Shown: one piece after another, positions 5,393-20,408 of the stretch
Position numbering within the stretch: position 1 is the stretch's first letter
How the letters are laid out: the number at the start of each line of letters is the position of its first letter
Source: an uncultured Desulfuromonadales bacterium
Lineage (GTDB): Bacteria; Desulfobacterota; Desulfuromonadia; Geobacterales; CAIOGM01
Direction: 5' to 3'
Length of the DNA stretch: 64,000 nucleotides
Assembly: GCA_903929485.1 (NCBI GenBank)
Contig: CAIYUY010000152.1
Span: 15,756-79,755 of the forward strand
Program-made: the position numbers and the translations under genes
Notes under the pieces: generated by a model
What the model saw: the letters and a program-made list of their open reading frames with translations, nothing else
Databases searched by the model: none
What the model was told of the DNA's origin: nothing

Positions 5393-8300
5393 ATGTTGAG
5401 GAAAGTAGTGCTCTGGACTCTCTTGTCGCTCTTGCTCCCCACTCTATCCATGGCGGCGGTAACCCTTTACAAGGTTAAATATGTGGCTTCACCGGTAACG
5501 GGCGGTTCGGTTTCGGCTCCGGACACACGCAACCCGTATCCCACCTCCAGCGCGGCTGGCGCCCGATTCAGGGTAATGCCCAATTTTGGCCAAAAAATCC
5601 TCCTTGTTTCCCTTACCAACCCGGCCGATGGAGTCATCACGTATGATCCCAATTATGTCACCAACGGCTATTTCACGGTGGTCCCCACCAAGGATACGAC
5701 CCTGACAGTCACCTTTGGCGTCGCTCCCTCCGCGGTCTACGCCAACGCGGGTCCGGCCAAGAATCTCGTCGGATTGGGAAGCGGCAAGACGGTCTCCCTC
5801 GGGGGTACCGCCTCCAGCGTTCCCACCATTTCCGGTCTGCTCTTTGCGTACCAATGGACGGTTTCCGACTCCAACGGGCACTTTACCGCTCCCAACAGCG
5901 CGACCACCGGTTTCTATGCCGACGTTCCGGGCTCATATGTACCGGTATTGGTGGTCACGGCAGCCGGTAAAACCAGTGCTCCGTCCCAGACCGTGGTGGA
6001 CGTCGTCACCAACACCAACCTTGATTCCATCGCCTGTATTTCTTGCCACAATGCACGTTCCCCCCTGGTTGTCGCAGGGTACAAATCGTCCAAACATAAT
6101 ACCGGCAGCAACCCCACGGCGCCCAGTTGCCAGAGTTGCCACACCGTCGCCAATCCCACCGCCACTCACCCGGCAAACCTCGTCCCCTTTGCGACTCTGG
6201 GAAATGTCTGCCTCAACTGTCACAACGACGGCTTCGGCAATGTTCCGCTGCATCCGGTGGCCATCGGGGTGCGGCTCTGCATCTACTGCCATGATCCCCA
6301 CACGACAGCGGCCACTGACCCCGACATTCAGGGGACGGTCCACTTCAATAATGTTACCAGCGGTGCGTACCCCGCTTCCTACGTGACGTCCCGCGCCACC
6401 TGCTATGATTGCCATATTGATACGGCAGCCAACGCCACCATTCGCGGTCAGTGGGCCCGGACGGGGCACGCTAACGTGAAAAGCCCCGCCTGGACAACCT
6501 ACGACTTCAAGACCCGGGCCGGCTGCGTCCAGTGCCACACAACCACCGGCTTCATCGCTTACTCCACCGGAAAGGTCACCGGCGCCTGGGGCCTGGCCGC
6601 GGATAAGAGCAAGGAGATGGTTACCTGCGTCGCCTGCCACAATGACGTTCCCGCCGGCGCACTCAGGTCGGTTACTCCCATCAAGCCTTACGCCGATGAC
6701 AGTTACGTGAATCGTAACGTGGGCCCCTCCAACCTCTGCGTGGATTGCCACGGCGGCCGGAATAACGGCAAAAGCGTCAAGAGCGCCGACTTCACCAATC
6801 AGGCATTTGTTTCACCCCACTACATGGCCGCGGCCGGACTCCTTCATGGTCAGGGTGGCTACAACTTCCCCGGTTACTCCTTCTACTCCTCCAACAGCCA
6901 CCGGAAAGTCGGAATCGGCGCCACCATGGGGACCGGTATCGCCGGACCCTGCGTGGCATGTCACATGTCCGCCCCCGCCAAGCATCTCTACAGAGCGGTC
7001 TCCACCGATACCGGCGGCATCATAACAAGCATCGACACAACCCTCTGCGCCAACTGCCACAACAGCTCACTGTCCGTGGAGAGCCTGAAGGCAAATCAGG
7101 CGACATTCGATAACGCCCTCTCCGTCCTTACCGCGGCGCTCTCAGCCAAGGGTTTTGTCTATTCGTCCAATTATCCCTACTTCGTCAACACCAACTGGGG
7201 GGCCGGTACCGCCGGCGCCAACAGCATGGGGGCGGCGTTCAATTATGTCCTCCTCACCCATGAGCCGGCCGCCTACGCCCATAACCCGGCTTATGCCAAA
7301 CAGCTGGCAATGGACTCCATCGATGCAGCCTATCATGACGGGACACTCACCGGCTCCATCGATGATGTCCTCGCCGCACTGGTGGGAGAAGGGAAGATCT
7401 CCCAGGCCCAGGCCGACTCCCTTACCAGCTACAAGTCCGCCGGTAACTGCGCCTCATGTCACACCAACAACACGGGGAGCCATACCAAACATCTGAACTC
7501 CCTGATGGGCGCCAACGCCATCGGTTGTGTCGACTGCCACAAGAACACCGCGGCGTCCAATACGGCCCTGGTTCCGGGAACCACCAAGCATCTCAACGGC
7601 ATGGTGGATGTGATCTTCTCCGGCGCCGGTAGTTACGCCGCCGGGAGCTGCGGCGCCGTCTATTGCCACTCAAACGGCGCCGCAACCTACAGCTCTCCGG
7701 TCTGGGGCGGAAGCCCGCTGAACTGCGGCTCCTGCCATCCCCTGGCGTCACTGCGGGGAGCTCACGCCGCCCACATCGGCGGAGTCATCCCGGCCTACGG
7801 CGATACCGCCAACTCCTCCACCGCCGCGGAATATCGCTTCGGTTGCGGTAGCTGTCACCCCACCGACATTGCCGGTCATGGCAACGGTCATATCGACGTG
7901 ACCCTCGTGCCGACGAATGACGGCACGTTACGGAGCAAGAATGATCCCGCCGTTCTCATCGGCGGCATCGGCAACAGCGGCAGCGGCATCACCGGCGCCT
8001 CCGGCGCCACGGTTGTCTGCTCCGCTGCCTACTGCCACAGTAATGGTGGCGTCGGCGCCGCCCTGGTCTATGTCGCTTCTCCCAACTGGTACGGCGGTTC
8101 CTATTCCGGCGACAGATGCGCCATGTGTCATGGCAATGCTCCCGCCACCGGCGCCCACGGCAAGCACGGGGTCGGCATCCATTCAGGTCTCATCTCCGAC
8201 AGCGACGGGAATCTTATTCCGGCCGGCGCGGCCCCCGGCACGGTGTCCGGCCATGGTGACCCTGTTCAGTCCACCACCATCAGCTGCGGCACCTGCCACA

Positions 8301-8674
8301 GCGCCACGGTGACCAACAGCGCCAACGACAAGGGGGCTGCCTGCAGCTCCTGCCATACCGCCATTGCCAAGGGAACACCCGTTCTGGACAAGACCATGCA
8401 CCTTAACGGCACGGTGAATGTGGCGTTCAAGGATGTGAAGATCATCACCAAGGCCCAGATCGAACCGGCAAGCTTCGGCGTTTATTCCACCTGCTGGACC
8501 AGAACCGGTTCCTCCTACAAGGTCGGCGCCGGCTCATTTGATACCGCCCGGAGCAGCCTGAATCAGGCGACTTTCGCCGGGGATAAGAGCTGCGCCAATG
8601 TGGCCTGCCACAACGGCGGCACTCCCAAGTGGAGCGACAAGCTCCATTGCGTGAGCTGCCATTCGGCGCTCTGA
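5393..8674 (+). CDS. Secreted multihaem c-type cytochrome: 18 CxxCH plus 3 CxxxxCH motifs, with an N-terminal Ig/PKD-like region
   Basis: Signal peptide MLRKVVLWTLLSLLLPTLSMAAV. I counted the haem motifs by hand in the translation. The C-terminal third carries three CxxxxCH...CxxCH pairs (CGAVYCH/CGSCH, CSAAYCH/CAMCH, CANVACH/CVSCH), the pattern of the Geobacter C4xCH/C2xCH domain family. Confidence 0.9.
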   Translation: MLRKVVLWTLLSLLLPTLSMAAVTLYKVKYVASPVTGGSVSAPDTRNPYPTSSAAGARFRVMPNFGQKILLVSLTNPADGVITYDPNYVTNGYFTVVPTKDTTLTVTFGVAPSAVYANAGPAKNLVGLGSGKTVSLGGTASSVPTISGLLFAYQWTVSDSNGHFTAPNSATTGFYADVPGSYVPVLVVTAAGKTSAPSQTVVDVVTNTNLDSIACISCHNARSPLVVAGYKSSKHNTGSNPTAPSCQSCHTVANPTATHPANLVPFATLGNVCLNCHNDGFGNVPLHPVAIGVRLCIYCHDPHTTAATDPDIQGTVHFNNVTSGAYPASYVTSRATCYDCHIDTAANATIRGQWARTGHANVKSPAWTTYDFKTRAGCVQCHTTTGFIAYSTGKVTGAWGLAADKSKEMVTCVACHNDVPAGALRSVTPIKPYADDSYVNRNVGPSNLCVDCHGGRNNGKSVKSADFTNQAFVSPHYMAAAGLLHGQGGYNFPGYSFYSSNSHRKVGIGATMGTGIAGPCVACHMSAPAKHLYRAVSTDTGGIITSIDTTLCANCHNSSLSVESLKANQATFDNALSVLTAALSAKGFVYSSNYPYFVNTNWGAGTAGANSMGAAFNYVLLTHEPAAYAHNPAYAKQLAMDSIDAAYHDGTLTGSIDDVLAALVGEGKISQAQADSLTSYKSAGNCASCHTNNTGSHTKHLNSLMGANAIGCVDCHKNTAASNTALVPGTTKHLNGMVDVIFSGAGSYAAGSCGAVYCHSNGAATYSSPVWGGSPLNCGSCHPLASLRGAHAAHIGGVIPAYGDTANSSTAAEYRFGCGSCHPTDIAGHGNGHIDVTLVPTNDGTLRSKNDPAVLIGGIGNSGSGITGASGATVVCSAAYCHSNGGVGAALVYVASPNWYGGSYSGDRCAMCHGNAPATGAHGKHGVGIHSGLISDSDGNLIPAGAAPGTVSGHGDPVQSTTISCGTCHSATVTNSANDKGAACSSCHTAIAKGTPVLDKTMHLNGTVNVAFKDVKIITKAQIEPASFGVYSTCWTRTGSSYKVGAGSFDTARSSLNQATFAGDKSCANVACHNGGTPKWSDKLHCVSCHSAL

Positions 8675-8767: not shown

Positions 8768-11700
8768 ATGGGCAAAGTCATTACGAAAAAAATCAGAGGA
8801 ATGGGATGGATGGCGAGGATCGGTCTGGTGCTCCTCTGCACCCTGCTGACCAGCGTCTTCATGCAGCAGGGATGGTACAAGCCGCTGGCCTCGGAAGCGG
8901 CAATCAGTGTCCAGCAGGCCTGGAGCACCGTCTATAACGGCACAGCCACTCCGGGAACGTACGCGTATCCCATCACCTCCGGTCCCAACAGGACCCTGGT
9001 CGTCGGAGTCTCCACCGTGGTCACCGCCACCACCGCCTCGCAGAGCTGCACCGTCACCTGGGGTGGGAAGCCGCTGGCGCTTGCCACGGGGAATGCCGCA
9101 ATCTCCGCCCAGCAGCACACCTACCTCTTTTACCTGGGTGAGGCGGATATCGCCGCGGCGTCGGGCTCGTCTCTCGTCATTGCCGTCACCGGCGGCACGG
9201 CAGCCTACAGTAACGTCTACGCCGGCGTCTATAACGGAGTGGACCAGGGTGCTCTCACGAAGATGGGGAGCTTTAACAACGGAACGACTACTACTTCCAC
9301 GATCGGTCCCCTTTCTCCCACGCTGACCCTCGCCACCGGCGACCTGGCGCTGGAACTTGTTAACCTGACTCGAACCGGCAGCGCCACCGCCCGGACGATC
9401 AGCAGCTGGGCCACCGGCTGGGCCGGCATTATTGCCAATACCGGCGCCAACAGCAGCAACTATGCCGTAAACACCAACATCGCCGGCAGCTCGACGGTGG
9501 GAACCACCTCCTCTTCTCATACGGCCAGCAGCTCCACGCTGGGCGCCATGTCAGCCCTGATCATCTCGCCGGTGGCCGGTGCGCCGGTCATAACCTCCGT
9601 CTCCCCCGTCTCCGTCAACATCGGCGATCCGGCCACCACCGTCACCATCACCGGCGCCGGTCTCACCGGTACCTCCTCCGTGACCTTCAGCGGGACCCTG
9701 GTTACCGCGGGGAGCCCCACTGTCGTCAGCGACACCCAGGTGACCGTGCCGGTAACCGCCGCAGCCGGAGCCGCCGCCGGCGACCGGACGGTGACGGTGA
9801 CCACACCGGTGGCGACCGGTTCCAAGCTGCTGACCGGTTTCGCCGTCAGCAACTTGCCGGCCCCCACCGTCACCGGCATCTCCACTCCCATCCTCGGTCA
9901 GGGAGGGAGCGCCCAGAACGTCACCATCACCGGCGCCAACTTCGTTAGCGGCGCCGGTCTCGCCTCAACCTTCGGCGCCGGCGTCACCGTGAACTCCACG
10001 AGCTATGTCAGTGCGACTCAACTCACCGCCAACATCACGGTGACGACTTCGGCCACCGTCGGATTGCATGACGTGGTCGTCACCAATCCCGATACCAAGT
10101 CCGGCGCCGGCACGGGTCTCCTCACGGTGAACGCCCGGGCCACTGTTCTCCTGACCTCCCCGTTCTCCGGTCTCCAGGGAGTAACGAACCAAGTCGTGAC
10201 GCTCTTCGGCACCGGCTTTTATCCCGGCGCGGGCTTGGCGGCTGTTTTCAGTGGCGCCGGTATTACCGTCAACTCAATAAGTTATGTGGATATGAATCAC
10301 CTCGGCGCCAACATTTCGCTGAGCGCAACGGCAGCCACCGGCGCCCGTACCATCACCGTCACTAATGGCGATACCGGGATCTCCGCTGCCGGTGGTTCTT
10401 ATACGGTGCTTGCTTCTACCGGCGCCGTCTCGATTTCTTCCCTCACTCCCTATGCAGTCGGTCAGGGGGTCAGTAACGCAAATGTTCAAATCTATGGCGC
10501 CGGTTTTGATCCTGCCGCCACCGTCACCTTCAGCAGCAGCAGAGTAACACTCAACTCCACCACCTTTATCGACTCCACGCACCTTACCGCCAACATTACA
10601 ACCAGCACCTCTTCCGCTCAGAGCTCCAACGTCACGGTGACCAATCCTGCCAGTGCCGGAAGCGGGACGTTTACCGCCACCGCCGGCTTCTACATCAACA
10701 GCCGTCCGACAATCACCTCGGTGACCCCCACCACCGGGCTCGCAGGTAACGCCTATGACCTGACCTTCGTGGGGACCGGCTTTCAGGCCGGGGCCGTAGT
10801 AGCCATCACCGGATCGGGGGTAACGATCAGCAACGTGAACGTGACCAGCGCCACCAGCATGACGGCCCATATGGTCATCGGCGCCACCCCCACCTACGGG
10901 CTTCAGACCCTCACCATCACCAACCCCGATCTTGGGTACAACACCATCTCCTTCAACGTGGCCAGCCTGACCTCGCCGGCAATCACCTCCATTTCCCCCA
11001 ACGTCATTGGTCAGGGGGCCACCGGGGTGAATGTCACCATCAACGGCGCCAACTTCGTCAGCGGCGCCACGGTGCTCTTCGGCGCCACCGGTAATACCAA
11101 CTTCACCACCAACTCGGTGACCTTCATCAGCTCCACCCAGCTGATCGCCAATCTTACTGTCGGGACAGGAGCGACGGTGGGGACCAACAACACCACTGTC
11201 ACCGTGACCAATCCCAACAGTGAAGCCGGTCTTGCCTCGCTTCTCAGCATCACTGCCCGTCCGGGGACGACGACGTTTACACCCACCATCGGGACGTTGG
11301 GAACCACCTTCGACATCGCCATCGTCAGCACTACTTTGGCGGCCGGCCCCGGCTTCGGCGTCACCGTCAGCGGCGCCGGTGTGACGGTGAACAGCTTCGC
11401 CTTACTCAGCGCCACGTCGGCCACCGCCAACGTGACCATCGACGCCGGCTATCTTGTGGCTCCCCTGGGAAGCCGGGTCATCACTCTCTCCAATGGCGAC
11501 TACGGCGCCAGGACCGGCACCCTGACCGTGCGCGGGCTTGTCCCCACGGTCATCGCCGCGACTCCCGCCATTCGCCAGGGGGCTGTCAACCAGAACGTGA
11601 CGATCACCGGGACTAACTTCTACCCCGGCGCCGTCGCCACCTTCAGTAACGCCGGTGTTACCGTCAACTCCACCACCTTCGTCGATCCCGCGACGGTAAC

Positions 11701-14341
11701 AGCCAACATCTCCGTGGACGGCGCCGCCGTCATCGGTAGCAGCAACATCACCGTCACCAACGCCGATACCCAGGCCGCAACGGGGACCGGAATCTTTACG
11801 GTGTCCGCCGCGCCTACCGTCACCTCCAACTCCCCTCTGACCGGTGGCCGGGGGGCGACCCTGGATGTTACCATCAACGGCGCCGGCTTCGTTTCCGGCG
11901 CCTCGGTTGTCTTCAGCGGCACGGGCATCACGGTGAACTCCGTCAGCGGCAGCGGTTCCAGCCTCACGGCAAACATCACCATCGCAGCAGACGCACTCCT
12001 GACTACCCGGAGTATCACGGTAACCAACCTGGACGGCAGCAACGCAGCCGGCGGCGCTTTCACGGTCCTCCTGCCGGTCGCCACCACCACTGCTCCCCTT
12101 ACCTTCGGTCAGGTCACCGAAACGAGTATCACGGTTTTGGCGCCCTACACCAATGACAGCAACGGTAACAATGCCTGCACCATCCTCTGGGGTACCGCTC
12201 CAGGGTCCTATACCAACAGCGCCGCTGCCGTGCGGCAGTCGGGATACTTTACGGCAACTCTCACCGGTCTCACCGGCGGGGTTGATGGAGAAGGTAAGGC
12301 TTACTATTTCCAGGTAACTTTCAGCGATGCCGACGGCGTCATCGGCGCAAACCCGGTTGCCGGGGTGCAATCCACCAAGGCCCGGCTGTTGATGCATAAC
12401 AGTGAAAACCTTAATTCAGGTAAATGGTCACAGGGGTGGGGTGTCACCGGCGGCAAGTACGGTGTGTTCACCTGCTCCACCTGCCACAGCGAGAACACCA
12501 CCAACAGCAAGATGATTGCCGGTTCCATCCAGACCCCCTCCCTGGAAAACTGGAGCTCCTCGGGGAGCAGCACGGTCGCTCCCGTTGTTTTCACCAAGGT
12601 CATGGGGGTCGATGCTCCCCACGCCACCTCCGATAAGGTTTGCGAAGTTTGTCACAGTCGCACGAGCCACCATCTCTACAACAACCCCGCTGCCAACCAT
12701 GAGGGGACCAAGGCCTGCACCGACTGCCATAGCCACAAACAGGGCTTTCTCACAAATTGCATCGATTGCCACTCTACCCCCCAGGGTAACCGTCGTCAGG
12801 TCGTGGGGAATGGTGGAGACTTCTTCTCCAACATGACCACCCATGTGAAGAGCTCCAGCATCAGCTCGCTCTCCTGCATGGCCTGCCACGACACCAATGG
12901 TCACAGATCCTTCGGCGATGGCGTCAGCGTCAAGCTGCGGAACGCCAACGGCGGCGCCTCCGTCGTGTACGACGGCACCTCCGCCACCGCCTCGGCAGTG
13001 AAGGACACCTGTATCTCCTGTCATGACGCCAACGGCGCTTCCGCCTACGGCGCTAACGCCCGGTCGCCCTTCGCCCCCTCCGGCGACACCAAGGCGCCCG
13101 CCGATATCAGCCAGTACTGGCCGGCAACGGGGGGAGCTCATAATGTCAACATGGTCTGCTTCAACTGCCATGGCAATTCAAAGGGGGTTGACGGGAGTAC
13201 CGTCAATCCGAAATATAACGGCCATGCTTCGGGAACCAAGCATATTCTCCAGGATCAGGCCTACGACGTGGTGAATCCCAATAACTACTGCTTCAATTGT
13301 CACAATGCGGCTTCCACCAATCCGAACAAGTCGTCAAAAAACATTGCCGGACAGATGGCTCTGGCTTCCAGGCATACCACCGCCAAATGCTTCGACTGCC
13401 ATGGCGCCGAGAGCAATAGCGTCAACAGCATGCATTCCCTGCGCGCCGGTTCACAGGTGAACTCTACAACCATCGCCAACAATATTTCCAATGCCGACGG
13501 CAGGAGCATGACTTGGTCCGGGACCAAGTGGGGTGGCGCTTCAGCTTCCACTCCTCTGACTTCGGGGACGGTAACCGCGGAATATCAGATCTGTATTAAA
13601 TGTCATGCCGCAACCGGCTCCGGCACGACCCCCGACGTTCCCGGGGTCGGTACCGCCGCCGCATCCCTCACCAATCTGGCTCTGGAGTTCAATCCCAACA
13701 ACGCTTCGGGCCACCCGGTCGTCACGGGACTGAACAATTACCGCAACTCCGTCGCCCCCAAGGCGCTGGCCGCAGCCACCATGAAGGCCCCCTGGAATGT
13801 GAACCTGGGGACCCAGGTCATGAGCTGCACTGACTGCCACGCCACCGACAGCGCCGGGGCCAAGGGGCCCCACGGCTCCTCCGTGAAATGGATGCTGGCC
13901 GGCGCCAACAAGGCATGGCCCTACACCACTGCCGCCGCCAACGGCACCAGCAGCGGCACCTTCTTCCGGATCGCTACCTACAATACCGGTGACGGTACGG
14001 CAAACGGCCTCTTCTGCCTCAATTGCCACACGATCAATGCCTCCAACAACTGGCATGCGAACTCCAATCTCGCAACCAGCGGCGGCGAACATACCTCCAG
14101 TACAACCGGTCCTCCGGTTTGCGTCAACTGTCATATCAGGGTCCCCCACGGCGGCAAGATCGCCCGTCTCCTCCAGACGACCAATGCTCCCGGGCGTTAT
14201 CAGGCCGGTGGTATTGCCGGTACGCCGCTCTTCACCCAGTGGGGCCCCACCACGGGAACCATCAAAGGGACGACCATGAGCAGCAGCAACTTCAACAGCT
14301 CATGCAATGAGCACAGCGGTACCGGCGGAGAAGCCTGGTAA
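8768..14341 (+). CDS. Giant surface protein: signal/anchor, unknown about 230-aa domain, nine IPT/TIG-like Ig repeats, one FN3-like domain and a C-terminal 13-haem c-type cytochrome domain
   Basis: 1857 aa. AGAGGG RBS upstream. Hydrophobic N-terminus ARIGLVLLCTLLTSVF. The repeats have the consensus P.IT..SP....QG.....VTI.G..F..GA...FSG.GVTVNS......T.LTANI........G...ITVTN.D. I counted 13 CxxCH motifs between about 12468 and 14130. Confidence 0.85.
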   Translation: MGKVITKKIRGMGWMARIGLVLLCTLLTSVFMQQGWYKPLASEAAISVQQAWSTVYNGTATPGTYAYPITSGPNRTLVVGVSTVVTATTASQSCTVTWGGKPLALATGNAAISAQQHTYLFYLGEADIAAASGSSLVIAVTGGTAAYSNVYAGVYNGVDQGALTKMGSFNNGTTTTSTIGPLSPTLTLATGDLALELVNLTRTGSATARTISSWATGWAGIIANTGANSSNYAVNTNIAGSSTVGTTSSSHTASSSTLGAMSALIISPVAGAPVITSVSPVSVNIGDPATTVTITGAGLTGTSSVTFSGTLVTAGSPTVVSDTQVTVPVTAAAGAAAGDRTVTVTTPVATGSKLLTGFAVSNLPAPTVTGISTPILGQGGSAQNVTITGANFVSGAGLASTFGAGVTVNSTSYVSATQLTANITVTTSATVGLHDVVVTNPDTKSGAGTGLLTVNARATVLLTSPFSGLQGVTNQVVTLFGTGFYPGAGLAAVFSGAGITVNSISYVDMNHLGANISLSATAATGARTITVTNGDTGISAAGGSYTVLASTGAVSISSLTPYAVGQGVSNANVQIYGAGFDPAATVTFSSSRVTLNSTTFIDSTHLTANITTSTSSAQSSNVTVTNPASAGSGTFTATAGFYINSRPTITSVTPTTGLAGNAYDLTFVGTGFQAGAVVAITGSGVTISNVNVTSATSMTAHMVIGATPTYGLQTLTITNPDLGYNTISFNVASLTSPAITSISPNVIGQGATGVNVTINGANFVSGATVLFGATGNTNFTTNSVTFISSTQLIANLTVGTGATVGTNNTTVTVTNPNSEAGLASLLSITARPGTTTFTPTIGTLGTTFDIAIVSTTLAAGPGFGVTVSGAGVTVNSFALLSATSATANVTIDAGYLVAPLGSRVITLSNGDYGARTGTLTVRGLVPTVIAATPAIRQGAVNQNVTITGTNFYPGAVATFSNAGVTVNSTTFVDPATVTANISVDGAAVIGSSNITVTNADTQAATGTGIFTVSAAPTVTSNSPLTGGRGATLDVTINGAGFVSGASVVFSGTGITVNSVSGSGSSLTANITIAADALLTTRSITVTNLDGSNAAGGAFTVLLPVATTTAPLTFGQVTETSITVLAPYTNDSNGNNACTILWGTAPGSYTNSAAAVRQSGYFTATLTGLTGGVDGEGKAYYFQVTFSDADGVIGANPVAGVQSTKARLLMHNSENLNSGKWSQGWGVTGGKYGVFTCSTCHSENTTNSKMIAGSIQTPSLENWSSSGSSTVAPVVFTKVMGVDAPHATSDKVCEVCHSRTSHHLYNNPAANHEGTKACTDCHSHKQGFLTNCIDCHSTPQGNRRQVVGNGGDFFSNMTTHVKSSSISSLSCMACHDTNGHRSFGDGVSVKLRNANGGASVVYDGTSATASAVKDTCISCHDANGASAYGANARSPFAPSGDTKAPADISQYWPATGGAHNVNMVCFNCHGNSKGVDGSTVNPKYNGHASGTKHILQDQAYDVVNPNNYCFNCHNAASTNPNKSSKNIAGQMALASRHTTAKCFDCHGAESNSVNSMHSLRAGSQVNSTTIANNISNADGRSMTWSGTKWGGASASTPLTSGTVTAEYQICIKCHAATGSGTTPDVPGVGTAAASLTNLALEFNPNNASGHPVVTGLNNYRNSVAPKALAAATMKAPWNVNLGTQVMSCTDCHATDSAGAKGPHGSSVKWMLAGANKAWPYTTAAANGTSSGTFFRIATYNTGDGTANGLFCLNCHTINASNNWHANSNLATSGGEHTSSTTGPPVCVNCHIRVPHGGKIARLLQTTNAPGRYQAGGIAGTPLFTQWGPTTGTIKGTTMSSSNFNSSCNEHSGTGGEAW
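9581..12072 (+). repeat. Nine tandem, diverged Ig-like (IPT/TIG-type) domain repeats of about 92 aa, inside CDS 8768..14341
   Basis: I delimited the repeat boundaries by hand from the recurring P(A/T)(I/V)T..(S/T)P ... TVTN.D pattern. Divergence at the amino-acid level argues against recent duplication or an assembly artefact. Confidence 0.8.
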
Positions 14342-14419: not shown

Positions 14420-14447
14420 AAGCCGGGGTTGACTCCCCGGCTTTTTT
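14420..14447 (+). terminator. Rho-independent terminator after the giant cytochrome gene
   Basis: AGCCGGGG-TTGACT-CCCCGGCT followed by a T6 run. A second 10-bp hairpin without a U-tract sits at 14351..14381. Confidence 0.75.
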
Positions 14448-14483
14448 ATGAACAAAACGGAAATCAAAGCCGGAGCGCGAACC

Positions 14484-15026
14484 ATGCGTAAAACTACCCT
14501 GATCATCTTTCTTTTCACCACCGCTCTGTTTGCCGGCTGTAAAGAGGCTCCACCGGGCAAGGGGGGGGCAGTACAACCCCAACGTACATCCGGTGGCGCC
14601 GTCACCGAGATCGTCCACCGAAGGATTGCCCGCTATAATCAACTTCTCAGCGAGGGGTACAAGAGTATCAACATGACCTCGCTGCAGGAGGTGACGACTC
14701 CGGAGTTGGCGGAAAAAGCCTATTATCATATGGCGGCCATCGGCGAGGGGAACAGCCGGATGGTGTCGGAGTTGAAAAAACTCGATTTCGTGGAGACTCT
14801 CTGCTCTAGTGCCATCACCTGTCGGGTTGTCACCAGGGAGCTGTGGGATTACTCCTATGAAGAGATCAAGAGCGGCAAGAAGGTCTACGAGGTGAAGGAT
14901 TACCTCTATGATGTGCGGTATCTGCTGGAGAGCCGGCAGGGAAGGTGGGTCATAACGGAGATCACCGCCACCGGCGAAGATCGCAAGGAGGTCCCCTCAT
15001 GGAAAGAGCTACTCAAAAAAAGGTAA
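14484..15026 (+). CDS. Putative lipoprotein, unknown function
   Basis: I chose the start MRKTTLIIFLFTTALFAGC because the longer ORF would begin inside the terminator T-run. The lipobox is LFAGC. I recognised no family. Confidence 0.55.
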   Translation: MRKTTLIIFLFTTALFAGCKEAPPGKGGAVQPQRTSGGAVTEIVHRRIARYNQLLSEGYKSINMTSLQEVTTPELAEKAYYHMAAIGEGNSRMVSELKKLDFVETLCSSAITCRVVTRELWDYSYEEIKSGKKVYEVKDYLYDVRYLLESRQGRWVITEITATGEDRKEVPSWKELLKKR

Positions 15027-15066: not shown

Positions 15067-15864
15067 ATGCCTGAGCTGACCGTCCGCCGCTGTTGCGCCA
15101 TCTTCGCCATCGTTGCTTTTTTTGCTGTTGTCGTCATCGCCGCTCTCCACCGTCTGGGGAGTGAGAGCAGGGTGGTGGGGAAGAGCGGATTGATAGGCTC
15201 GCCGGACATTGTCAAATTAATGGCTGATGATCCTTCGGAGGCGTACCGGATCTGGAAGGAGTTCGGCTACCGGGGCCGAATAATCGTTTATCTGGCGGAT
15301 CGATGGGAAACGTGTAATCCCGATGAAATGATACCGGCGCCATTGGCTCGACCGTACCCCCTGTCTCTGGTGAATCCGGCACGGTTTCTTGAGGAGAACA
15401 ACCTGAACGGCGCTACGTTTCTCTATATCGCTTCCTTGAATAGGATTACCCGGAAGATCGTGGCGCTTCTCCCCCCCGGGGAGATCAGCAGGATGGTGGG
15501 AGCGACCAAGAGAGGGAAGGATTTTCAGATTACATCCAGCGGTATTGATGATTCCCGGCAAGGTTTTCCGCGACGATTCACCACTGTCGACCATTTTGCC
15601 GGCAGTGGAGAGCCCGTGCTTCTCTACGTGGGGGCATCCTGTCTTCGCGCGGTGGAGCCCGAGGAACTTTACCGTCTCTTGATCAAATCCGGAGTTACTA
15701 CTGACTGCGTCATCCTTTGTCGGGAAAAAGGGAAAGATTCGGTGTCTCCGGTTGAAGTAGCCAAACTCCACCGCTTTGCTCGGCTCATGGGCTTGAGAAC
15801 CCTTTCGGGAAGCCGGGGCGCCACCCGGTACGTAGCTCCCATGGCCGCGGTACCGGCATCATGA
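15067..15864 (+). CDS. Hypothetical protein with a single N-terminal transmembrane anchor
   Basis: 265 aa. GAGGGAAG RBS upstream. Hydrophobic segment CCAIFAIVAFFAVVVIAAL. The stop overlaps the next start (ATGA). I recognised no family. Confidence 0.5.
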   Translation: MPELTVRRCCAIFAIVAFFAVVVIAALHRLGSESRVVGKSGLIGSPDIVKLMADDPSEAYRIWKEFGYRGRIIVYLADRWETCNPDEMIPAPLARPYPLSLVNPARFLEENNLNGATFLYIASLNRITRKIVALLPPGEISRMVGATKRGKDFQITSSGIDDSRQGFPRRFTTVDHFAGSGEPVLLYVGASCLRAVEPEELYRLLIKSGVTTDCVILCREKGKDSVSPVEVAKLHRFARLMGLRTLSGSRGATRYVAPMAAVPAS

Positions 15865-17189
15865 AAATTGTTACCTTTCCCCACTGGAAGCCCCGGCTGC
15901 CGGCGGGAGTCACACTGCTATCTCTGATTCTGAACGGCATCCTCCTGTCACGGCAGCCGGTTTCCCTGGATGATTTTCACGTGGCGCTCTCCGCCATCAA
16001 TTTTACGGAATCCGGACAGCTGGGCCCGACCATGTGGAATCATCCGGTGTTGCGTAACCTCCTGGTCTACGGGACCATGAAGCTGTTCGGCACCGGAGTC
16101 CTCGGTGTGAAAGGGGTGTCTCTTCTCCTGGGAACCCTCTGCACTCCCCTGGTGGCCCTGGTGGCCCGGCGGATCTTTCGAGATGAGCGGATCGCCCTCA
16201 CCGCGGCTCTTCTCTGGGCTGTTGACCCCCTGGTCATCGATTTCTCCCGCCAGGGTATCAACGATATCTATCTGGCCTTCTTCCCCTTGCTTGGCATCTA
16301 TCTGGCCTATCGTTTTCGAGAAACAGCCAACTCGGCGTGGCTGTTGGTTTCGGGGATAGCCTTCGGTCTGGGGTTGGCTTCCAAGTGGAGCGCCCTGTTC
16401 CCTTTGACGGCGACCTTTGTTCTGATCATCGTCACCATCGCTGGGGGAGCGGGGGGGATGCGGGAGAGGTTGGCTCGTTATTGTCATGTGACGGCCCTCC
16501 TCCTGGTGATTCCGGCCTTGGTTTATCTGCTGACTTTTGTCCCCTGGTTTGCCCGGGGGTACACTCCGGCGGAGTGGCCGGCGCTCCAGCGGAGCATGTT
16601 TCTGGAGACCTCTCAACATGCGGGGTACAAGCCCAAACTGTGGGACGACCGGGACAACCGGGCCTGGAAGTGGTTCGTCGTCCCGTCGCTGTTCGTCGAC
16701 CCTTTCATGAATCTGGACCACATTTGGGGAGATGAAGAGGTGGTAGTGACTCCGGAGAAGAACGTAACGGTGGTCCTGGGGGTCGCAAATCCCCTGGTCT
16801 GGCTGCTGACGCTCCCGGCGATTTTTTTCCTGCTCCGCCGAGGAATTCGCCAGCGGGATGAAGGGAGAGTGTATCTGGTTGCGTTGTTTTGCTGCTCTTA
16901 TCTCCCCCTGATTCTGTCGCCGCGCCCCATCTGGTTGAATACCGCCCTTTCGGTTCTTCCTTATGCTATCATGGCTGTCGGGGGTCTGATTTGGACTCTG
17001 GCTGACCGTCTCCAGCGACCGGGGCGCGGTGTTGCACTTTATCTGCTCCTGGTTCTCCTCGTTGCTTCGCCGCTGTATCCGTTGGCCATCGGCAAGGGGA
17101 TGAGAATACCTTTTTTCAGGGAGTACCTGGCAAGTCGCTATCTCGTGCAGTTCAAAGAGAAGATGCCTCATACGCCGTCACAGCCATGA
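15861..17189 (+). CDS. GT39/PMT-like (GT-C fold) phospholipid-carrier-dependent glycosyltransferase
   Basis: 442 aa and polytopic. An acidic pair (SLDDF) sits in the first loop. The layout HP.LRNLL.YG..KLFG ... ARRIF ... DP..IDFSRQGINDIYL resembles bacterial protein O-mannosyltransferase/ArnT-type enzymes. Confidence 0.6.
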   Translation: MKIVTFPHWKPRLPAGVTLLSLILNGILLSRQPVSLDDFHVALSAINFTESGQLGPTMWNHPVLRNLLVYGTMKLFGTGVLGVKGVSLLLGTLCTPLVALVARRIFRDERIALTAALLWAVDPLVIDFSRQGINDIYLAFFPLLGIYLAYRFRETANSAWLLVSGIAFGLGLASKWSALFPLTATFVLIIVTIAGGAGGMRERLARYCHVTALLLVIPALVYLLTFVPWFARGYTPAEWPALQRSMFLETSQHAGYKPKLWDDRDNRAWKWFVVPSLFVDPFMNLDHIWGDEEVVVTPEKNVTVVLGVANPLVWLLTLPAIFFLLRRGIRQRDEGRVYLVALFCCSYLPLILSPRPIWLNTALSVLPYAIMAVGGLIWTLADRLQRPGRGVALYLLLVLLVASPLYPLAIGKGMRIPFFREYLASRYLVQFKEKMPHTPSQP

Positions 17190-17208: not shown

Positions 17209-18525
17209 GTGAAACCAGCCAAATTCCTTACCGCACGCTCCACCGTCATGACGCTGTTGATTGCCGTCAGTTCGGCGCTCCTCCTTACCTGTTTTCTGCC
17301 GCAACGGAGCTCCGGTGACGGAAATATTCCCCCGTGGGTCGGTCGACTGCCGGAGCAGTTCCATTTTCTCTCCTCACTGCTTGGCCTGGACAACATTGTT
17401 GGCGCCGGCTGGTTTGCATTTTTGGTCGGGCTCTTTTCATGTTCACTCATCTTCTCCACCTTGGCCCAGTACAAAACCGCCATGTCTCAGGCCCGGCGAC
17501 TTCCCTCGGGGTCCATACCGGACGAGAGTATCCGCCTCAAACTGTCGCCCTCGCTTCTTGCCCAACGTTTACAGACGGCGGGATACCGCTTGGCCGGCAG
17601 CGGGGAGGGCGTAGAGAGGTATGTGAAAAACCGCTGGGGTTACTGGGGAAATTTTCTGATTCACCTGGGATTGGTCACCGTGGTTCTCTTCTCCCTGGTT
17701 TATATCGTGACCCGGCATCGGGTGTTGCTGCGGCTTACCGGGGGTGAGATGACGTTGCTCACCCCCGGTAATTTTGTCGAAATGAAGGGGGTCATGCCGC
17801 TTCAGCGCCGCCTTCCCGCCGGCATCTCCTTGATCCGGTTGGAACCCCGTTTCTGGAAAAACGATAAACTGGAATTTCTGAGTTCCGAACTTTCATTCAC
17901 CGACCGTCCCGGTAGTCAGCCTCGGCGGGTGGATGTTGCCCTCTGTGACAAGTCCCAGTACGGTCCCTTTATCGTCTACCAGATGAATGCCTACGGTCGC
18001 GCTTTTGATCTCTTGTTCGAATCACCGCGGGGAGAGAGACATGGACAGCGTTTTTTTCTGCCGTATCCTCCCAGTCACATGAAGGCCGGCTATGGCGATA
18101 CGGCGCTGGAAGGGACCGATCTCCTTCTCAAGGGAAAGTTCTACACCGATTCAAAACGCCAATCCATGAAGCTCAACTCTCCACCTCTTTATCTGCGTCT
18201 TCAGCGAGGACAGGAACTCCTGGGGGAGGTAACTCTTCAGCCGGGTGCCGCCAAGGTGTTGGGTCCTCTCAAGGTCACGTTGACCCGTTCTTCCTGGTGG
18301 ACTGATATCCTCCTGGAAGGGAGTCGCGGCACGACCGGTATTTTTGCCGGCTTTGCCGTCATTCTGGCGGGGGTGCTTATCTCCTACTGTCTTGTCCCCC
18401 GAGAGATCATTGTCAGGGAATCCGGCGGAACGCTTCATCTCCAGCAGGTGGCGCGGCGTTTCGCCCTGTTTTACCGTGAAGAGTTTGCAGATATCATACA
18501 GGCACGACAATCAGGAGAATCATGA
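17209..18525 (+). CDS. resB: Cytochrome c biogenesis protein ResB/Ccs1 (System II)
   Basis: 438 aa with a GTG start. The topology and the WGYWGNFLIHLGLVTVVLF segment are typical of ResB. The stop overlaps the ccsA start. Confidence 0.7.
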   Translation: MKPAKFLTARSTVMTLLIAVSSALLLTCFLPQRSSGDGNIPPWVGRLPEQFHFLSSLLGLDNIVGAGWFAFLVGLFSCSLIFSTLAQYKTAMSQARRLPSGSIPDESIRLKLSPSLLAQRLQTAGYRLAGSGEGVERYVKNRWGYWGNFLIHLGLVTVVLFSLVYIVTRHRVLLRLTGGEMTLLTPGNFVEMKGVMPLQRRLPAGISLIRLEPRFWKNDKLEFLSSELSFTDRPGSQPRRVDVALCDKSQYGPFIVYQMNAYGRAFDLLFESPRGERHGQRFFLPYPPSHMKAGYGDTALEGTDLLLKGKFYTDSKRQSMKLNSPPLYLRLQRGQELLGEVTLQPGAAKVLGPLKVTLTRSSWWTDILLEGSRGTTGIFAGFAVILAGVLISYCLVPREIIVRESGGTLHLQQVARRFALFYREEFADIIQARQSGES

Positions 18526-19352
18526 ACGGTTCATTGGCAGTTGTCGTAGGAATTCATTGGGGAGCGGTTATCCTGTATGTCCTGGCGACGATCATGTTCA
18601 TCGTCGGGCAGTTTTTTGAAAAACCACGGTTTGTCCGTCGGGGGCTGCAGGTAGCCGTACCCGGTCTGCTGCTCCATGGCGCCGGTTTGCTTATCTGGTG
18701 GCGGATGGTGGGCCATGGTCCCTATATCGACCGTTTCGAGGTTCTCTCGTCCAACGCCTGGATTCTGCTCTGCGCCTTTCTCCTGTTCAGTATACCGTAT
18801 CCTCGTTTGAAGGGGGTTGGCATCATCGTCTTTCCCGCCACCTTCATTCTTGTGGCTCTGGGGCTCTTCTTCAATCCGGAGATCAAGACACTTCCTCCAA
18901 CCTTTAGGAGTGTCTGGCTGGTGCTGCATATCATCTTCTACAAGATCGCCTTCTCATCCATCATCATCGCCTTTGCCTATTCGCTTTTCTTTCTTCTGAT
19001 CAAGCGAAATCGACTGAAACGGCTGGTTCGGGTGCTTCCGGATCTCCCCGGAATCGACATGTATGCGTACCGTTTCGCCGGCTTCGGATTTACCTTCTGG
19101 GCCATCGGCATGCTGGCCGGCTCCATCTGGGCGTATCAATCCTGGGGGAGCTTCTGGAACTGGGATCCGGTTCAAACCTGGTCGTTGGTCACCTGGGGGG
19201 TATTTGGCATCTATCTTCATTTGCGACGCTTTTTTGCCTGGCAGGGGGAGCGGGCGGCCTGGCTCTACACCGTCTGCTTTGTTCTCACCATTGTCTCGCT
19301 CTTTTTGACGCCCCTGTTCCAGTCGTCTATTCATGCGGAATATTTTAAATAG
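18522..19352 (+). CDS. ccsA: Cytochrome c biogenesis haem-handling protein CcsA/ResC (System II)
   Basis: 276 aa. Tryptophan-rich WWD-type motif WAYQSWGSFWNWDPVQTWSLVTW followed by LHLR. Confidence 0.85.
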   Translation: MNGSLAVVVGIHWGAVILYVLATIMFIVGQFFEKPRFVRRGLQVAVPGLLLHGAGLLIWWRMVGHGPYIDRFEVLSSNAWILLCAFLLFSIPYPRLKGVGIIVFPATFILVALGLFFNPEIKTLPPTFRSVWLVLHIIFYKIAFSSIIIAFAYSLFFLLIKRNRLKRLVRVLPDLPGIDMYAYRFAGFGFTFWAIGMLAGSIWAYQSWGSFWNWDPVQTWSLVTWGVFGIYLHLRRFFAWQGERAAWLYTVCFVLTIVSLFLTPLFQSSIHAEYFK

Positions 19353-19361
19353 GTTATTCCT

Positions 19362-20408
19362 TTGACCCTCAGCAGAGCATTGAAACTTGTCAGGGTGTTC
19401 CGGAGGATGAGCCTCCGCCAGCCTACTTTTGTCAGTTACAATATCTCCAACGTCTGCAACGAAGCCTGCCCCATGTGCTCGGTCTGGCAACGTGGCAGTG
19501 TCAAGGAACTCTCAGTTTCCGATATGGAGAGGATTTTTCTCGACTTGAAGCGGTTCGGTTTCATGGTGGCCGAGATATCCGGAGGCGAACCGTTCCTGCG
19601 CCGTGATCTCTTTGACGCCTTCGCCATGTTGGATCGGATCGGTTTTTTGTATACGACCGCCACCAATGGGACCTTGCTGACCCCTGAATCCATCAAGCGA
19701 CTGAGCTCGTGCCAGGGGTTGTTGCAACTGGCGGTGAGCATCGACTCCCTGGATCGTGTAACTTACCAACGTTTGCGGGGAAGAGACCTGCTGCCGAAGC
19801 TTCTGGAGAACATCGACCTGCTGGCCCAAGCAGGACTACCCATGCCGGTGAAGCTCAACCTGGTTATGAATCGTTTCAACTACCGGGAAACGATGGCCAT
19901 ACTCGCCTATGCCGCGTCGCGTAAACTTGCTCTTTCGGTCTTTCCCGTAAATCTGGGTGACGGTTTTCTGCATCGCTCCAATCCTCATGAATATCTTCCC
20001 AACCCGGTGGAACGGCGGGAGATGGCCGAACTCTTCAGGGAACTGGCGAGGATGAGGAGGAGAGGGGAGTCGCTCTGGGAATACAGCGGGTTCTATGAAA
20101 AAGCAGCGGATTATGTGGAAGGTCGACCGGTGGGACCCTGTGACGCGGGTGCTCTTTATATGGATCTGCATGCGGGGGGTGATATCTCGGTCTGCGTCGA
20201 TCAACCGGTGATAGCGGATCTCCGCGGCAACAGCATAGCGGATATCTGGCCTAAGCTCATGGCACAGCGGGAAGCGGTGCTCAGTTGTTCAACGACAACC
20301 CCCTGTTTCTATACGTGTACCTACAATATTTCCATTACCGCCAGAAACGAAGCATCTTTTTTTCGGGAAACAGCTTCTGTCGCCCTACGACGCCTGGTGG
20401 GGGTCTGA
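19362..20408 (+). CDS. Radical SAM enzyme with a C-terminal SPASM/twitch-like Cys cluster
   Basis: CxxxCxxC motif (NVCNEACPMC). GGEPFL SAM-binding motif. The C-terminus reads GPCDAG...GDISVCVD...CSTTTPCFYTC. The TTG start is uncertain. It begins 9 nt after the ccsA stop. Confidence 0.7.
   Translation: MTLSRALKLVRVFRRMSLRQPTFVSYNISNVCNEACPMCSVWQRGSVKELSVSDMERIFLDLKRFGFMVAEISGGEPFLRRDLFDAFAMLDRIGFLYTTATNGTLLTPESIKRLSSCQGLLQLAVSIDSLDRVTYQRLRGRDLLPKLLENIDLLAQAGLPMPVKLNLVMNRFNYRETMAILAYAASRKLALSVFPVNLGDGFLHRSNPHEYLPNPVERREMAELFRELARMRRRGESLWEYSGFYEKAADYVEGRPVGPCDAGALYMDLHAGGDISVCVDQPVIADLRGNSIADIWPKLMAQREAVLSCSTTTPCFYTCTYNISITARNEASFFRETASVALRRLVGV

Follow-up and report, generated by a model that had tools for sequence, protein, structure and literature searches.

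Respiration of metals and electrodes by Geobacter-type bacteria relies on multihaem cytochromes, which number in the dozens. The correct loading of polypeptides with 20 to 45 haems is the question that our analysis touches. Geobacter sulfurreducens and Geobacter metallireducens have been described as having four ResB-related genes each; every one of these has a ResC/HemX-like partner gene and lies together with genes for multihaem cytochromes, and it was suggested that each pair is dedicated to the cytochromes of its own neighbourhood (Aklujkar et al. 2009, PMC2700814). Here we examine a ResB/CcsA pair encoded in a 64,000-nucleotide (nt) stretch of DNA (the window, contig CAIYUY010000152.1 of assembly GCA_903929485.1, positions 15,756 to 79,755 of the forward strand) from an uncultured Desulfuromonadales bacterium. 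Judged from its sequence, the pair appears to be a System II holocytochrome c synthase that is intact and split into a CcsB-like and a CcsA subunit, with an accessory rather than a housekeeping role. We propose, with a probability of about one half, that it is dedicated to the co-encoded giant cytochromes of the CxxxxCH/CxxCH family. If so, what the pair is dedicated to is most likely these substrates as a family, or their co-expression, and not just the CX4CH spacing found at some of their haem-binding sites. The analysis establishes that the genes are whole, which catalytic residues they keep, how many paralogues the genome has, where the pair falls in the tree and that its neighbourhood is conserved; activity as a catalyst, the choice of substrates and specificity, if any, are inferred. 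The idea of dedicated pairs in Geobacter dates from 2009 and is not new; the window pair is an added case, and in itself an ordinary addition to the known Geobacter set.

The accessory pairs of G. sulfurreducens (GSU0704/0705 and, by map position, GSU2891/2890 and GSU2881.1/2880) belong to the same CcsA clade as the window pair (Shimodaira–Hasegawa-like approximate likelihood ratio test (SH-aLRT) support of 100), with 52–59% CcsA identity. They also share its split two-gene layout, its position beside giant cytochromes with CX4CH domains and the coexistence of a canonical pair in the same genome. The glycosyltransferase, membrane protein and radical SAM genes are absent from the G. sulfurreducens loci, whereas the sub-clade of the window pair has the first two, and in most of its loci the third, together with a lipoprotein. 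In addition, G. sulfurreducens has three members of the clade; the window's own genome has one, and its pairs on contigs C60 and C163 belong to other clades. Transposon sequencing (Tn-seq) of G. sulfurreducens lists the canonical pair GSU0613/0614 among the essential genes, with 1.5 and 3.5 insertions per kb (Chan et al. 2017, PMC5585712, Tables S2 and S4). The homologous clade pair GSU0704/0705, in contrast, is non-essential, with 12 and 19 insertions per kb and log2 ratios near zero (PMC5585712). GSU2891 has been detected as a protein in proteomes (PMC8691401).

An extra System II synthase encoded by an odd-motif cytochrome is also known from Wolinella succinogenes, in which NrfI (CXXCK) and CcsA1 (CX15CH) exist beside the general CcsA2. 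Like the window pair, NrfI and CcsA1 retain all of the conserved histidines and the WWD motif (PMC10663686). Unlike the window pair, which is split and a predicted synthase, they are fusions of the CcsBA type whose specificity has been proven genetically, and the comparative data for the window clade speak against strict motif dependence. Escherichia coli likewise encodes a paralogous haem lyase together with the cytochrome that it serves: NrfEFG is dedicated to the CXXCK motif of NrfA (PMC12285233). NrfEFG, however, belongs to another biogenesis system (System I, with a CcmF paralogue) and gave a marginal match of 21 bits, through the WWD domain only.

The window pair consists of two genes, both of them intact:

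Positions 17209–18525, plus strand: resB-like gene with a GTG start, encoding a ResB/CcsB-like subunit of 438 amino acids.
Positions 18522–19352, plus strand: ccsA, encoding a CcsA/ResC subunit of 276 amino acids (PF01578).

These coordinates agree exactly with the System II ResB/CcsA pair that the first-pass annotation of this DNA had placed at 17209–19352. The start of the resB-like gene has an identical position in its orthologues, some of which use ATG. The ATG of ccsA overlaps the stop codon of the resB-like gene by 4 nt (ATGA), so that the two genes are translationally coupled.

By sequence, the first subunit matches the ResB family weakly. Its PF05140 score is 30.9 bits (cut-off 24.6), compared with 256 bits for the canonical ResB of the same genome, and the match covers residues 15–171 (the N-terminal 157) only; NCBIfam models gave no match to this protein. 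Its identity to the ResB paralogues of its own genome is ~22% over a quarter of the length. The assignment is nevertheless supported by an invariant histidine, a confident structural model and the best structural matches of that model. His152, in the third of four predicted membrane helices, is found in 33 of 33 orthologues and is a candidate for the TM-His1 position. An AlphaFold (AF2) model computed on the ortholog alignment has a mean predicted local distance difference test score of 88.4 and shows four long helices around a beta-rich (periplasmic) domain. In a Foldseek search of the PDB, the top matches to this model are the CcsBA structures 7S9Y and 7S9Z (probabilities of 1.00 and 0.99, with a low TM-score of 0.25), and CcmF ranks behind both. 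The first-pass annotation had also called this ResB, at 438 amino acids, compact. The other ResB-like proteins of the genome have 453, 452 and 389 amino acids, and with paralogues spanning 389–453 amino acids we ruled out compactness as a sign of specialization.

The second subunit matches PF01578 at 119.8 bits (cut-off 29.9). TIGR03144, the equivalog model of the housekeeping CcsA, scores 143.7 bits, below its cut-off of 187.6, and by these scores the protein is a member of the PF01578 family and not the housekeeping equivalog. Its WWD motif, WGSFWNWDPVQTW, lies at approximately residues 207–222 (window 19140–19185). In an alignment with Helicobacter hepaticus CcsBA (7S9Y; 25vk was also aligned), H136 pairs with His761 and H233 with His858. 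All 42 clade members compared have H136, H233 and H271, as do the canonical proteins. In CcsBA, two periplasmic histidines flank the WWD domain and are accompanied by a membrane histidine (PMC6299221). H136, H233 and H271 occupy the P-His1, TM-His2 and P-His2 positions, respectively. The window pair thus shares its Pfam families and the four-histidine and WWD architecture with canonical System II synthases, among them Bacillus subtilis ResB/ResC, CcsB/CcsA, H. hepaticus CcsBA (7S9Y/7S9Z) and Bacteroides thetaiotaomicron 25vk. It differs from them in its sub-cut-off TIGR03144 score and in the WWD loop. Canonical, HemX-type and epsilonproteobacterial proteins have WDPKETW, whereas the window CcsA has WDPV(E/Q)TW, and all three accessory CcsA clades have either this loop or WDAVEVW, with Val replacing Lys. 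We assign no functional meaning to this substitution.

By homology with CcsBA, reduced haem b would enter a membrane site at which His152 in the ResB-like protein and His233 in CcsA are its ligands. It would then pass to the periplasmic WWD site, with His136 and His271 as ligands, and there be joined by thioether bonds to the Cys-Xn-Cys-His motifs of unfolded apocytochromes. Acting in this way, the pair would mature the 21-site cytochrome encoded in the window, and probably also the 13-haem one; the essential canonical pair, on contig C121, would work beside it.

To place the pair among its relatives, we built a tree of 59 CcsA-like sequences with the CcsBA proteins of Helicobacter and Campylobacter jejuni as outgroups. 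The CcsA of the pair falls in a Geobacterales accessory clade of 43 rows (SH-aLRT 100, stem length 1.19) and, within it, in a sub-clade of 12 rows (SH-aLRT 99). The accessory clade is present in at least 35 genomes and includes the three extra copies of G. sulfurreducens, GSU0705 and the putative GSU2890 and GSU2880. GSU0614 and GSU0705 (at 0.650 and 0.753 Mb) were identified from gene lengths equal to those in the Tn-seq table and from coordinates that differ from the table's by a constant 1.9 kb, and the map positions of the copies at 3.156 and 3.176 Mb indicate that these would be GSU2880 and GSU2890. The canonical and hemA-linked CcsA types of both genomes, G. sulfurreducens and the window's own, lie outside the accessory clade, and the other accessory types of the window's genome (C60; C163 with C364) form separate clades. 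A scan with a 199-amino-acid fragment of H. hepaticus CcsBA listed 80 loci from Campylobacterota and Bacteroidota, with no Wolinella among them.

Clade-type ResB/CcsA genes are also found in an Actinomycetes metagenome-assembled genome (MAG; locus L020) and in a Coriobacteriia MAG (locus L021, 2936–10702), and these nest inside the Geobacterales clade. The nesting suggests that a cassette of cytochrome and synthase genes moved horizontally into Actinomycetota.

The first-pass annotation had raised the number of paralogues as a point that bears on its proposal. The window's own genome (G000; 99% complete, 369 contigs) contains six CcsA-like (PF01578) genes and four ResB/CcsA pairs, and the pair under study is not the only one:

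Contig C121: canonical pair (ResB, 256 bits; CcsA, 80% identical to G. sulfurreducens GSU0614), beside a ppcA-like trihaem gene.
Contig C110: HemX-type gene, hemA-linked, with the ResB partner absent.
Contig C152: pair under study.
Contigs C60 and C163: two further cytochrome-linked pairs.
Contig C364, 7589–8485: solo CcsA-like gene, sister of the C163 accessory type.

Next to the solo gene on C364 there is no ResB-like gene, and cytochrome genes are absent from the 7 kb around it; the neighbouring open reading frames (ORFs) encode 513 and 409 amino acids. Some Geobacterales additionally carry a CcsA-like protein of 239 amino acids (L216, 9067–9786; L217, 9302–10021), which is of a YpjD-like type. 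It has no ResB or cytochrome neighbour and inflates the PF01578 copy counts.

The distribution of CX4CH sites in this genome follows its accessory pairs. All 26 CX4CH sites of multihaem ORFs, together with 201 CXXCH sites, are confined to five contigs, and the remaining multihaem ORFs have 149 CXXCH and 0 CX4CH. Three of the five contigs (C152, C60 and C163) carry an accessory pair, and the other two (C145 and C354) are linked to C60 by shared end 40-mers only. The right ends of C60 and C145 have one identical 40-mer, and the left end of C145, when reverse-complemented, is identical to the right end of C354. The CX4CH-rich cytochrome genes of C60, C145 and C354 are probably one island, broken by repeats, near the C60 pair. 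Shared end 40-mers also fit collapsed repeats, and we do not take the adjacency of C145 and C354 to an accessory pair as proven.

Upstream of the pair, the window contains two cytochrome genes and a hairpin:

Positions 5393–8674, plus strand: secreted multihaem cytochrome of 1093 amino acids, with 18 CXXCH and 3 CX4CH.
Positions 8768–14341, plus strand: secreted cytochrome of 1857 amino acids, with repeats of the Ig-like (CoaZ) kind and, in a C-terminal module, 13 CXXCH.
Positions 14420–14447, plus strand: GC-rich terminator-like hairpin, GCCGGGG-TTGACT-CCCCGGC followed by T6, read from the sequence.

The first-pass description of two giant upstream cytochromes, one of them with CX4CH sites, is borne out by the motif count, which gives three CX4CH in the gene at 5393–8674. 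They lie at residues 753, 876 and 1067, within TIGR01904/PF09698 domains, and the C-terminal third of the protein consists of CxxxxCH/CxxCH domains (PF09698, E=1.4e-9; TIGR01904, E=4.7e-20 over three stretches). Because all three sites are kept in orthologues of 46–52% identity, they are not chance occurrences. The 1857-amino-acid cytochrome matches the CoaZ repeat model NF058597 in eight stretches and has a CX4CH count of 0. The 1093-amino-acid cytochrome is a likely substrate of the pair, and the 1857-amino-acid cytochrome is probably another. The pair had further been described as lying immediately downstream of these cytochromes in their operon, which does not hold: three genes and 2.87 kb intervene. 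The hairpin, which is not among the hits of a consensus scan, separates the cytochrome genes from a six-gene maturation string that includes the pair, and a single operon shared by cytochromes and pair is therefore not demonstrated.

We examined the association between the accessory clade and CX4CH cytochromes in 40 clade loci from ~27 genomes, taking 20 kb around each. At least 34 of the 40 loci have giant cytochromes bearing CX4CH, usually directly upstream of resB, and the sites at clade loci total 298 CX4CH and 1370 CXXCH (~4.6 CXXCH per CX4CH). Five closed Geobacter genomes have 125 PF09698 domains in all, of which 79 have a clade ccsA at no more than 20 kb and 110 at no more than 60 kb. 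For G. sulfurreducens, the latter distance takes in 22 of 22 domains. What the analysis adds is that the accessory clade tracks the CxxxxCH/CxxCH cytochrome family almost one-to-one in genome position. Among 121 genomes of the order, PF09698 is present in 35 of 35 with the clade and in 45 of 86 without it (Fisher p=2e-8), and genomes with more CcsA-like genes tend to have more PF09698 hits (Spearman rho 0.75 at the order level). Because these statistics take no account of the relatedness of the genomes or of the clustering of the motifs, the p-values overstate the evidence. By position, the clade is very strongly tied to CX4CH cytochromes.

Such a tie would be expected of a motif-specific lyase whose sole or main targets are CX4CH sites beyond the capability of canonical ResB/CcsA. 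That explanation, which we consider unlikely, draws on the local and genome-wide link of the clade to PF09698 CX4CH domains, on the confinement of CX4CH in the window's genome to accessory-linked contigs, on the near absence of PF09698 from genomes with two CcsA-like genes (1 of 26, G005) and on the precedent of System II lyases dedicated to odd motifs (PMC10663686, PMC12285233). G005 (14 PF09698 domains, two CcsA-like genes) was dropped as a counter-example: its genes are hemA-linked and YpjD-like, and the canonical pair is missing at 91% completeness. Motif and clade do, however, occur apart in both directions, in four genomes that are all incomplete MAGs. G027 (95% complete) and G120 (93% complete) have 34 and 18 PF09698 domains and no accessory pair, their CcsA genes being of the canonical, HemX and YpjD types only, with none beside a cytochrome; conversely, the Actinomycetota MAGs G121 and G122 have clade-type CcsA, other CcsA-like genes and zero PF09698 hits. 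The Coriobacteriia homologue at L021 (46% identical) lies directly behind a cytochrome of 1869 amino acids with 33 CXXCH and 0 CX4CH. Moreover, 45 of the 80 PF09698-positive genomes are without this clade (most have other accessory types), and the neighbouring cytochromes are nearly free of CX4CH at three clade loci (39 CXXCH and 1 CX4CH at L103, no CX4CH at L127 and L132). In the window itself, the cytochrome nearer to the pair has 13 CXXCH and 0 CX4CH. A PDB search returned no structure with haem on a PF09698 CX4CH site, and the protein P0003 had no significant PDB relative. Finally, Kern et al. 2010 (cited in PMC10663686) say in their title that unconventional motifs alone are insufficient for NrfI and CcsA1, which points to recognition of the cognate protein and not of the motif alone. 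A bolder version would make the Geobacterales accessory clade a third kind of motif-specialized System II lyase, needed at the CX4CH site of the CxxxxCH/CxxCH domain; in the sub-clade of the window pair, the glycosyltransferase, the radical SAM enzyme and two envelope proteins would join it in a private finishing line of giant surface cytochromes. We regard this version as doubtful; under it, G027, G120 and the Actinomycetota exceptions would be incomplete assemblies or secondary losses of specificity. The first-pass proposal of a substrate-dedicated lyase thus stands in part: the genome does have an additional, specialized-looking pair (one of four pairs, in a long-stemmed clade and in CX4CH company), but G027, G120, the Actinomycetota and the CX4CH-free neighbour of 1857 amino acids speak against CX4CH as the purpose of the enzyme.

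The abundance of ordinary CXXCH around the clade, quantified above, also fits a capacity or regulatory paralogue, that is, a general CXXCH synthase without preference that raises supply when polypeptides of 13–45 haems are made. So do the catalytic residues, all of which are canonical, the Coriobacteriia homologue behind a CXXCH-only cytochrome and the dispensability of GSU0704/0705 for laboratory growth. We nevertheless think this explanation improbable. The clade is of old origin and has diverged far from the canonical pair, as its long stem shows; several distinct accessory clades occur side by side in a single genome, every one with a cytochrome set of its own; and 12-haem cytochromes elsewhere in the window's genome are without a private ResB/CcsA pair. 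The divergence of the pair (TIGR03144 below the cut-off, ResB at ~22% identity) exceeds what a dosage copy would need and favours a dedicated synthase. It is very improbable that the pair is not a synthase, and instead a haem exporter or handler (for example, for the radical SAM enzyme or the glycosyltransferase pathway) or a decaying duplicate. HemX-type and YpjD-type CcsA-like proteins without ResB do show that the fold is used outside synthases, and the weak ResB family match would agree with such a role. Both subunits are intact, however, and kept in at least 35 genomes, with invariant haem-ligand histidines and WWD motif, and the pair always adjoins cytochrome genes. Dedication to the co-encoded CxxxxCH/CxxCH-family cytochromes is the reading that we prefer, and several points weigh against it. 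Co-location could mean co-regulation for capacity rather than specificity, and the hairpin at 14420–14447 may uncouple transcription of the pair from that of the cytochrome genes. Of the 26 CX4CH sites of the genome, 19 (on C145 and C354) are tied to an accessory pair solely by the end 40-mers, and the tie is to the C60 pair and not to that on C152. The correlations are not independent of a generally cytochrome-rich lifestyle, and the compared sequences are interrelated. The literature on GSU2890/2891, GSU2880 and GSU0704/0705 consists of genome, proteome and Tn-seq tables, with no functional test.

G. sulfurreducens offers a ready system in which to ask whether System II has substrate-dedicated isoenzymes outside Wolinella and whether CX4CH sites depend on them. 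For the heterologous production of giant cytochromes, a co-expressed cognate accessory pair may matter.

The six-gene string downstream of the hairpin encodes, in order, a lipoprotein, a single-pass membrane protein, a PMT-type glycosyltransferase, ResB, CcsA and a radical SAM enzyme, with gaps of −4 to 40 nt. The four genes that accompany the pair are the following:

Positions 14484–15026, plus strand: lipoprotein with the lipobox …LFAGC; the ORF opens at 14448, and the Met of the signal peptide is at 14484.
Positions 15067–15864, plus strand: single-pass membrane protein of 265 amino acids with no family assigned; a 4-nt stop/start overlap with the next gene.
Positions 15861–17189, plus strand: PMT/GT-C type glycosyltransferase of 442 amino acids (PF02366, 66.5 bits; PF13231, 65.9 bits).
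Positions 19362–20408, plus strand: radical SAM enzyme of 348 amino acids (PF04055, 74.2 bits), starting 9 nt after ccsA.

The closest orthologous loci, from uncultured Geobacter, Geomonas and Geomesophilobacter (CcsA identity of 80–95%), have the same module, sometimes in a changed order, beside CX4CH-bearing cytochromes. The genes for the 265-amino-acid membrane protein and the glycosyltransferase are syntenic throughout the 12-row sub-clade. The radical SAM gene, whose product has only weak, sub-threshold matches in NCBIfam, is found in most loci of the sub-clade and is syntenic in the closest orthologous loci. Gene order varies: the glycosyltransferase set precedes resB in the window and follows ccsA in L099, L101 and L132.

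The lipoprotein had no hit in Pfam or NCBIfam. Homologues of 25–62% identity are encoded beside ResB/CcsA in ~28 of the 40 clade loci (L093–L132), including one G. sulfurreducens locus, and the lipoprotein may be a third conserved component of the accessory system. A role as a ResA/CcsX-like thiol reductase was ruled out: the protein has no CXXC motif and matches no thioredoxin family.

The C-terminal module of the 1093-amino-acid cytochrome (residues 712–1093, window 7526–8674) contains 3 CX4CH and 7 CXXCH. It is 44% identical to a G. sulfurreducens cytochrome of 464 amino acids (L105, 18596–19990), encoded ~15 kb from the GSU2890-like gene, and this match indicates that the module also exists as a stand-alone protein.

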